Assembly (NCBI GenBank): GCA_005889275.1
Contig: VBFI01000050.1
Location: 1-46,295, forward strand
Length of the DNA: 46,295 bases
Origin: Chloroflexota bacterium
Lineage (GTDB): Bacteria > Chloroflexota > Limnocylindria > P2-11E
Direction of reading: 5' to 3'
A program made the position numbers and the translations under genes. Below are positions 7,732-8,326 of this stretch, piece by piece (the first letter of the stretch is position 1; every line of letters starts with the position of its first letter). The notes under the pieces were generated by a model. That model saw nothing but the letters and a program-made list of their open reading frames with translations. It was not told where the DNA came from and searched no databases.

Positions 7732-7737
7732 TAAACT
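7732..7737 (+). promoter_or_regulatory. Putative -10 element (TAAACT) of the pyr operon
   Basis: TANNNT hexamer just upstream of the PyrR hairpin in the divergent M23/pyrR gap. Confidence 0.45.
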
Positions 7738-7745
7738 CAGCCGAG

Positions 7746-7785
7746 CACCTTTAAGGACCGGTCCTGCGAGGCCGGGAAGGGAGCG
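7746..7785 (+). ncRNA. PyrR-binding cis-regulatory RNA hairpin
   Basis: CCUUUAA..CCGGUC-CUGCGA-GGCCGG-GAAGG matches the PyrR binding loop consensus (CUUUAA, RGUCCnGnGAGGYU, GAAGG); upper stem 7758-7763/7770-7775, lower stem 7748-7752/7776-7780; directly before pyrR. Confidence 0.9.
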
Positions 7786-7789
7786 CCGA

Positions 7790-8326
7790 ACGACCACGCT
7801 GCTCGCCGCGGACGACGTCCGCCGCGCCGTCACCCGGATCGCGCACGAGATCGTCGAGCGCGACCGAGACCTCTCCGTTCTCTCCATCATCGGTATCCGC
7901 ACGCGCGGCGACGCGCTCGCGGCCCGCCTCCGCGCGGCCATCCGCACGAACGAGGGCACCGACGTGCCGCTCGGCGCGATCGACATCACCCTGTATCGCG
8001 ACGACCTGACGCGGATCGGTTACGCACCGGTCGTGCGCGCCTCCGAGATCCCCTTCTCGGTCGACGACCGTGTCGTGGTCCTCGTCGACGACGTGCTCTT
8101 CACCGGGCGGACGGTCCGGGCGGCGATGGACGCGCTCGTCGACTATGGACGGCCGCGCGCGATCCGCCTCGCCGTGCTCGTCGATCGCGGGCACCGCGAG
8201 CTTCCCATCAGGGCCGACTTCGTCGGGAAGAACGTTCCGACCGCCCCCGGCGACGATGTCCGCGTGCGCCTGGCCGAGGTGGACGGCCGCGACGAGGTCG
8301 AGCTGGTCGCGAAGGTCCCGGCATGA
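7790..8326 (+). CDS. pyrR: PyrR pyrimidine regulatory protein / uracil phosphoribosyltransferase; start codon apparently non-canonical (ACG 7790, alternatively CTG 7799)
   Basis: [35 protein letters not shown] and [19 protein letters not shown] motifs; SD GGGAG at 7779-7783 lies 6 nt before ACG. Confidence 0.92.

Follow-up and report, generated by a model that had tools for sequence, protein, structure and literature searches.

In the pyr operon of Mycobacterium smegmatis, PyrR reportedly acts by repressing translation, a mode of control that Fields and Switzer are said to have described in 2007. There, pyrR is the first gene of the operon, a single PyrR hairpin overlaps the pyrR ribosome-binding site, neither terminator nor antiterminator is present, and stop and start codons overlap at the junction with the downstream gene; mycobacterial pyrR genes are not known to use other than ordinary start codons. 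A second point of reference is PyrR of Bacillus subtilis, which acts by attenuation (RF00515 for the binding site, 1a3c for the protein), and a third is infC of Escherichia coli, encoding IF3, whose AUU start is the textbook example of a non-canonical start codon in an autoregulated gene. Here we describe pyrR in a Chloroflexota bacterium (GTDB lineage Bacteria; Chloroflexota; Limnocylindria; P2-11E; assembly GCA_005889275.1), on contig VBFI01000050.1, the 46,295 nucleotides of which were analyzed as a whole and are referred to below as the window; the genome (G000) has an estimated completeness of 90.8% and a GC content of 69%. In this genus of uncultured soil bacteria the start codon of pyrR is almost certainly ACG, a very rare initiation codon, and it is likely that near-cognate initiation at this codon is combined with translational autorepression of the mycobacterial type. 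The locus resembles that of M. smegmatis in each of the traits listed above and differs from it in the start codon, which is ordinary there, ACG here and CTG in sister genera. For M. leprae, pyrR is stated to start with ATG (PMC2753549).

Read directly from the window, the letters following the Shine-Dalgarno (SD) region are CGCCGA (7784-7789), ACG (7790-7792) and then ACC ACG CTG CTC. The initial annotation had proposed this ACG as the start after finding no canonical in-frame codon between a putative -10 box and the conserved N-terminus, and both observations stand: ACG 7790 is in register with the phosphoribosyltransferase domain encoded by the open frame 7583..8326, and all three frames are devoid of ATG, GTG and TTG from 7744 to 7963. 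A canonical triplet is not reached until the in-frame GTG at 7964, codon 59, and a start there would remove the conserved N-terminal helix of PyrR. The identity of the product is indicated by a match to PF00156, the type I phosphoribosyltransferase domain (66 bits against a cut-off of 26.3), and by matches to the solved PyrR proteins 1ufr (E 8.9e-63, residues 4-173), 1a3c (1.5e-55) and 1w30 (2.2e-46). In the alignment with Thermus PyrR (1ufr, 181 residues), residue 4 (Leu, codon 7799) is matched to residue 7, and the protein of 178 residues expected from a start at ACG 7790 is of normal PyrR length.

The evidence that carries the assignment comes from relatives. Of 61 relatives, 60 have a detectable pyrR, as do 84 of 92 family genomes at E values up to 1e-40, and the 5' region of the gene was read in 82 family loci, those of G011 (locus L019) and G088 (contig end) being left out; together with two sequences from the sister family these loci form a hairpin-anchored alignment of 84 sequences. 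In L019 the leader and the first 11 or so pyrR codons are replaced by unrelated sequence, through either rearrangement or misassembly. At the column of ACG 7790, which lies 6-7 nt 3' of the SD throughout the 82 family loci, ACG is found in 18 loci, all of them within the genus of the window, CTG in 34 (18 in genus g3, 14 in g8, one in g7 and one in the window's own genus), ATG in 19, GTG and TTG in five each, and GTA in one (L018); the two sister-family rows have ATG one codon upstream of the column. Aligning the 5' ends of relatives, a check that the initial annotation had called for, yields ACG and not ATG at this codon in 18 of the 20 genus loci with an intact 5' end. Because sister genera carry ATG, GTG, TTG or CTG at this very codon, the column is marked as an initiation site. 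Unpublished genomes contribute to these counts: L005 (G010) and L014 (G021) to ACG, L085 (G096) and L086 (G097) to the g3 CTG loci, L052 (G064) to those of g8, and L024 (G026) to TTG.

Additional support is provided by reading frames that are closed upstream of the proposed start. Six of the 18 ACG loci, none from an unpublished genome, have an in-frame upstream stop and no ATG, GTG or TTG between it and the ACG, the stops being located at codons -24 (L002), -39 (L009), -86 (L011), -15 (L015), -125 (L016) and -31 (L020). Similarly, in 17 of the 18 g3 CTG loci a UAA within the UUUAA of the hairpin closes the frame 16 codons upstream, again without a canonical start. Two further patterns were observed at the same codons. 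In L018 (G008), GTA ACT ACG CTG replaces ACG ACC ACG CTG, and a new AGGT lies just upstream; within one subclade of genus g8 (L051-L066), the CTG is followed at the second codon after it by an ATG or GTG in 12 of the 14 CTG loci (CTG ACC ATG CTG), where either codon could be the start, and L054 and L056 have the CTG alone.

Sequencing error does not explain ACG 7790. Three DNA runs from as many other studies (X5, X7 and X11) yielded contigs that span 7790-7792 with no difference listed there, and no mismatch to the window occurs in a contig of an RNA library (X20; 7775-7947, depth 2.8); the question raised by the initial annotation, whether position 7791 is T or C, is thus answered as C in all four, with the qualification that this evidence consists of assembled contigs, which are able to hide minor variants, and that X20 is a single contig, from which a transcript start cannot be read. 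The sole variant listed in the other-run contigs is G>C at 7755.

Analyses of selection and phylogeny describe how the codon has been kept. Among the 18 ACG loci the median pairwise synonymous divergence (dS) is 0.625 (maximum 1.11) and the median ratio of nonsynonymous to synonymous divergence (dN/dS) is 0.092, indicating that pyrR is under purifying selection and functional. Only one of 68 third bases at fourfold sites is invariant in this set, and the ACG is unchanged at all three letters. A maximum-likelihood tree was built from 510 coding columns that exclude the start region; in it, 19 of the 20 genus loci cluster (support 92/92; L023 unresolved) and the window pyrR is sister to L015 (96/83). 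The two exceptions within the genus, CTG in L008 and GTA in L018, group with L017, which has ACG (100/99); with both exceptions placed in this way, the simplest reading is that the ancestor of the genus already had ACG and that the codon arose once. Across 36 family rows the type of start codon switches at least nine times.

The leader upstream of the ACG contains a hairpin of the PyrR-binding type, composed of a lower stem (CCUUU/GAAGG), an internal loop (AAGGA), an upper stem (CCGGUC/GGCCGG) and a loop (CUGCGA). As the initial annotation had it, the SD overlaps the 3' strand of this hairpin, bases 7775-7780 of 7775-7783 being paired, and no attenuator follows: no terminator-like site was found in 7600-8000, and the 3' part of the RF00515 model, which represents the terminator and antiterminator, is unmatched in the leader. 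Given the lack of both elements, any control by PyrR would have to act on translation, not on transcription termination. The binding stem-loop of RF00515 (model positions 1 to about 40) aligns to 7744-7784 with high posterior, and the minimum free energy (MFE) fold includes the hairpin. Likeness to the B. subtilis attenuator thus extends to the protein family and to the binding-loop consensus UCC.G.GAGGC with its flanking stem, whereas the terminator/antiterminator part of that system is missing here.

Conservation of the hairpin is extensive. A regular expression describing it matched 88 of 97 relatives' loci in 37 distinct variants, and in 38 rows covering these variants eight of the 11 stem positions are paired in every row, the remaining three being paired in 32, 36 and 37 rows; one C-G to G-C exchange occurs among the stem positions. 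The loop core is invariant in the 84 aligned sequences, and a search of the whole genome for it returned eight matches, of which the pyrR leader alone has the full context. A second PyrR site, considered at C194:1644, was rejected, as only a 38-codon frame lies 3' of it. The counterpart of the SD in relatives is GGGAAGGAG. Duplexes between SD and anti-SD have a median energy of -8.6 at ACG loci versus -7.0 at ATG loci, with overlapping ranges, no more than a faint trend; these energies were computed with an assumed anti-SD motif, the assembly being without the 16S 3' end. In three class-level relatives of family f3 (L043, L047 and L048), the hairpin and SD are followed by a mini open reading frame of seven codons (GTG or ATG ... 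CGA TGA) whose stop overlaps the pyrR ATG (ATGA), and PyrR may there act on a leader peptide, with translation of pyrR coupled to that of the peptide.

The promoter proposed in the initial annotation fared less evenly. The letters of its -10 box are present, and relatives have TATACT at the aligned place; a scan of 7600-8000 for two-hexamer sigma-70 promoters was blank and did not detect the TAAACT box, so that the case for a -10 is drawn solely from the conserved TATACT at the homologous place. Transcription would accordingly be placed as starting near 7744, which would give a leader of roughly 46 nt.

Initiation at ACG does not appear to involve a specialized tRNA. Among 44 tRNAs detected in the genome there is one initiator, with a CAU anticodon and GGG:CCC in the anticodon stem. 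A dedicated ACG-reading initiator was considered and rejected, since only this normal CAU initiator was found and tRNA-Thr(CGU) is an ordinary elongator. With a tRNA set of this kind, ACG would be read through near-cognate pairing by the normal initiator.

Together these data suggest a mechanism in which PyrR probably throttles its own translation in this genus. The ordinary CAU initiator tRNA would read ACG 7790 as a near-cognate start, helped by the well-placed SD. The leader would comprise little beyond the PyrR hairpin, the 3' strand of which contains the 5' half of the SD; with pyrimidine nucleotides plentiful, PyrR would keep the hairpin closed and 30S binding would be blocked, with no terminator involved. 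Repression would then be passed to pyrB via the ATGA overlap of stop and start, and perhaps also by polarity. The ACG itself may keep PyrR synthesis low and perhaps raise its sensitivity to PyrR occupancy. As the sequence of the SD is fixed by its second job as PyrR target, the start codon would be the part free to evolve, and expression may have been tuned through it, with ATG, GTG, TTG, CTG and ACG occurring at one column and this genus having settled on the weakest. The comparisons above establish the layout of the locus, the conservation of ACG, the want of other starts in relatives, purifying selection on pyrR and an ordinary set of tRNAs; initiation at ACG and its efficiency, the weakness of ACG in this organism, PyrR binding and repression, coupling to pyrB, a setting of the pyrB-pyrC level and any adaptive value of the weak start are inferred.

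Several observations weigh against this account. Support for the ACG start is comparative throughout, and the related genomes are non-independent samples, such that the counts describe the data and do not represent independent trials. The window itself keeps in-frame ATGs upstream, at 7694 and 7706, so that the case for this particular genome leans on its relatives. As regards the leader, the whole RF00515 match reaches 23.8 bits (E 0.12 in a 131-base scan), below the gathering score of 54; an Rfam scan of 2 kb (7000-9000) at E values up to 1 returned no match. The stability of the leader fold is ordinary (z 0.85; 162 of 200 shuffled sequences fold at least as well), and the hairpin is accordingly identified through sequence conservation, not energy. 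Were ACG as weak here as in E. coli, pyrR would be poorly translated at all times, ill-suited to driving an operon, and expression of all the genes behind it could suffer from so weak a leading cistron, unless pyrB has initiation of its own. Finally, as detailed below, ACG is not enriched behind SDs in the genome as a whole, and the exact start may shift between lineages, as suggested by L004 and by the 12 g8 loci mentioned above.

The last of these points bears directly on whether initiation occurs slightly farther downstream, at ACG 7796 or CTG 7799, which we regard as unlikely. ACG 7796 is kept in 19 of 20 genus loci, L004 having an ATG there, two codons downstream of the ACG column, and it is a less probable candidate for the start; CTG is a recognized rare bacterial start and one that is enriched behind SDs in this genome. 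Spacing favors the upstream codon, however, as the distance from GGAG is 12 nt for 7796 and 15 nt for 7799 versus 6 nt for ACG 7790, and the ATG, GTG and TTG of sister genera fall at the 7790 column, whereas the 7796 column varies in the manner of a sense codon (ACG, ATC, GTC, ACC, ACT). Codon 7799 is CTA in L002, L011 and L020, three genus loci without any canonical start, is CTC, ATC or TTG elsewhere, and takes the form of Leu, Ile or Val codons across the family, and thus behaves as a sense codon. Initiation upstream, giving a long N-terminus from ATG 7706, ATG 7694 or GTG 7583 under a promoter inside the divergent M23 peptidase gene, is very improbable, even though the two ATGs of the window are joined to pyrR without an intervening stop and an in-frame ATG lies 30-32 codons upstream in six other genus loci. 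Both ATGs of the window do lie within the M23 gene, where the initial annotation had placed them, and the long form would translate through the conserved hairpin and overlap the M23 start. The extension is unconserved, since in six ACG loci the frame is closed upstream and offers no start; L015, the closest relative in the gene tree, shares the same divergent M23 gene and has its in-frame stop at codon -15, contrary to the long N-terminus that the initial annotation had named as the finding that would overturn its proposal. Furthermore, the SD differs in length by 1 nt among close relatives, most genus members having GGAG and the window and L017 GGGAG, and this indel shifts the upstream frame, leaving no upstream frame common to the genus loci, and solved PyrR proteins start 3-12 residues before the position of residue 4 here.

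Two further explanations accept the codon and dispute its meaning. Editing of C to U in the mRNA would convert ACG to AUG and allow canonical initiation, as in plant organelles, where such editing is common, and it would account for the strict conservation of ACG. We consider this extremely improbable: the X20 contig reads C at 7791, which is weak evidence given its depth of 2.8, the dropping of minor variants and possible DNA contamination, and other near-cognate starts of the genus (CTG, ATC) are beyond repair by C-to-U editing. To our knowledge, editing of this kind has not been reported at bacterial start codons. Less easily set aside, although we hold it to be doubtful, is the notion that the ACG start has no regulatory meaning, being a hypomorphic mutation that was fixed a single time in the ancestor of the genus and is tolerated because the initiation machinery of the lineage is lenient towards near-cognate codons. 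The single origin of ACG on the gene tree would fit such a history, as would near-cognate starts in unrelated housekeeping genes of the genus and the repeated changes of start-codon type across the family rows. Yet one C-to-T transition would restore ATG, and not one of 18 lineages has undergone it at this codon, while 67 of 68 fourfold sites vary among them. The absence of reversion suggests that selection favors ACG or at any rate does not oppose it, an argument that is weak with so few and such related lineages. A broader account, put forward only tentatively, is that initiation is lenient across the family, with CTG (at a few per cent of SD-led genes), ATC, ATA and, rarely, ACG serving as regular, heritable starts and the start codon acting as a rheostat; at pyrR, ACG may have been selected because slow, IF3-proofread initiation lets PyrR beat the 30S subunit, thereby sharpening control of the operon.

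The use of near-cognate starts elsewhere in the genome was assessed by a census of first possible starts behind a strong SD, with coding-like G+C content at third codon positions and a frame open for at least 100 codons; a real in-frame upstream stop was required, and four controls with displaced SD spacing were run. The census returned 113 sites for ATG (controls 17-25), 62 for GTG (17-20), 17 for TTG (4-6), 10 for CTG (1-3) and five for ACG (3-6). ACG is therefore not a general start codon of this genome. The enrichment of CTG behind SDs is about equal to that of the canonical codons, and CTG accounts for some 4-5% of the SD-led starts counted, a share far above that in usual annotation reports. 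Besides pyrR, a PucR-type gene (C132:6645) is an ACG candidate. The CTG candidates are real genes. Their Pfam domains start as early as residue 4 or 5 in a response regulator (C36:10308, minus strand) and in Iso_dh, an isocitrate/isopropylmalate dehydrogenase, and those with a domain from residues 12-15 include GntR (C221:28665, minus), an LLM oxidoreductase (C104:82397, minus) and EamA (C151:2910); a DtxR-type repressor (C47:4292) is a candidate for an ATC start.

Three genes outside the pyr operon illustrate this use in more detail. Iso_dh (C35:709-1791, plus strand; L181/L192) has its CTG behind GGGGAGG, the CTG being present in 12 of the 13 genus loci shown (L201 is unpublished); in eight of these 12 an in-frame stop lies upstream with no canonical codon after it, and the same position is occupied by ATG, GTG or TTG in sister genera. 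For scpB (C170:8581, plus strand; L185/L222), which has no canonical start, an ACG start was considered and rejected as unconserved, and an invariant ATC was found two codons downstream instead, 8 nt after AGGAGG in 22 of 22 genus loci. In infC (C125:4-510, minus strand; L099) the conserved N-terminus is preceded, as far back as the nearest in-frame stop, by no ATG, GTG or TTG, and the gene of this genome most likely starts at ATA, a start of the sort usual in IF3 autoregulation. No hslV gene was found in this genome. Near-cognate CTG, ATC and ATA starts in other genes imply that the ACG of pyrR is part of a habit of the lineage and not necessarily a design specific to pyrR.

The features of the locus are collected in Table 1. 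By Pfam assignment, pyrR is the first gene of an operon continuing with pyrB, pyrC, carA, carB and pyrD. The ATG of pyrB overlaps the pyrR stop (ATGA, 8323-8326), an arrangement that 25 loci of 29 examined in relatives share, in the form ATGA or GTGA, and an SD-like GAGGGTG or GAAGGT lies 5' of the pyrB ATG. On the opposite strand, the M23 gene would begin at its GTG and continue into a signal-peptide-like N-terminus, a start that is assigned by inference; L015 has ATG at the homologous position. Only 18 bases separate this GTG from the putative -10 box of pyrR, and the two divergent promoters must therefore overlap. Between carB and pyrD and beyond, the long open frames 15198-16322, 17387-19273 and 19723-22331 have no Pfam match and are probably wrong frames in a genome of such high GC content.

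Table 1. Positions of the elements and genes at the pyrR locus, numbered along the window.
Feature	Position	Strand	Basis or remark
Putative -10 box TAAACT of the pyrR promoter	7732-7737	+	Aligned TATACT in relatives
PyrR-binding-type hairpin	7748..7780	+	Partial RF00515 match, MFE structure, conservation
Shine-Dalgarno region GGAAGGGAG	7775..7783	+	Core GGAG 7780-7783; 7775-7780 hairpin-paired
ACG, proposed pyrR initiation codon	7790-7792	+	6 nt 3' of SD; conservation, upstream stops in relatives
pyrR coding sequence	7790..8326	+	178 codons plus TGA; PF00156, PDB 1ufr match, dN/dS 0.09
Divergent M23 peptidase gene	7015..7713	-	Pfam PF01551, 84.8 bits; GTG start at 7713
pyrB (aspartate carbamoyltransferase)	8323..9279	+	Pfam

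When set beside other non-canonical starts, the pyrR codon most closely recalls that of E. coli infC, in that a regulator gene keeps a conserved, poorly recognized start codon across species. The two cases differ in that IF3 reads the start codon itself and PyrR binds a hairpin over the SD, and in the mismatch to AUG, which affects the middle base in ACG and the third base in AUU. We know of no link between PyrR and start-codon discrimination. The ability of a bacterial ribosome to start at ACG with Met is indicated by a study in E. coli, in which mass spectrometry of the product of an ACG start gave N-terminal Met with traces of Thr, and codons other than AUG, GUG, UUG, AUA, AUC, AUU and CUG, ACG included, initiated at 0.1-1% of the level of AUG (Hecht et al., bioRxiv 10.1101/063800); the ACG codons there belong to synthetic reporters, and that of pyrR is natural and conserved. 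Eukaryotic, viral and organellar systems also offer examples in which the codon for the initiator Met is a conserved ACG; eukaryotic initiation differs in its machinery (scanning, eIF1/eIF2), and organelle ACG is edited to AUG. Among the literature matches listed, which left subscription journals mostly uncovered, no natural bacterial ACG start was found, the matches being to eukaryotes, viruses, organelles and engineered constructs only. A search for literature on non-canonical start codons in Chloroflexota, with the same limited coverage of subscription journals, returned no match.

Taken together, the comparisons support a natural ACG initiation codon, kept across a genus on an autoregulated bacterial gene, in a lineage that appears unusually rich in near-cognate starts. 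The bacterial genetic code table does not list ACG as a start, and gene finders do not try it, as a result of which pyrR in this genus is either extended into the neighboring gene or deprived of its RNA-binding N-terminus. A natural ACG conserved across 18 species on an autoregulated gene would offer a concrete system in which to explore the limits of relaxed initiation fidelity in bacteria, and the same system addresses whether weak start codons are selected as regulatory devices, as for infC. More broadly, to judge from the conserved CTG and ATC starts, uncultured Chloroflexota may draw on a wider range of start codons than annotation pipelines assume, which, if true, would touch many protein N-termini in metagenome databases.

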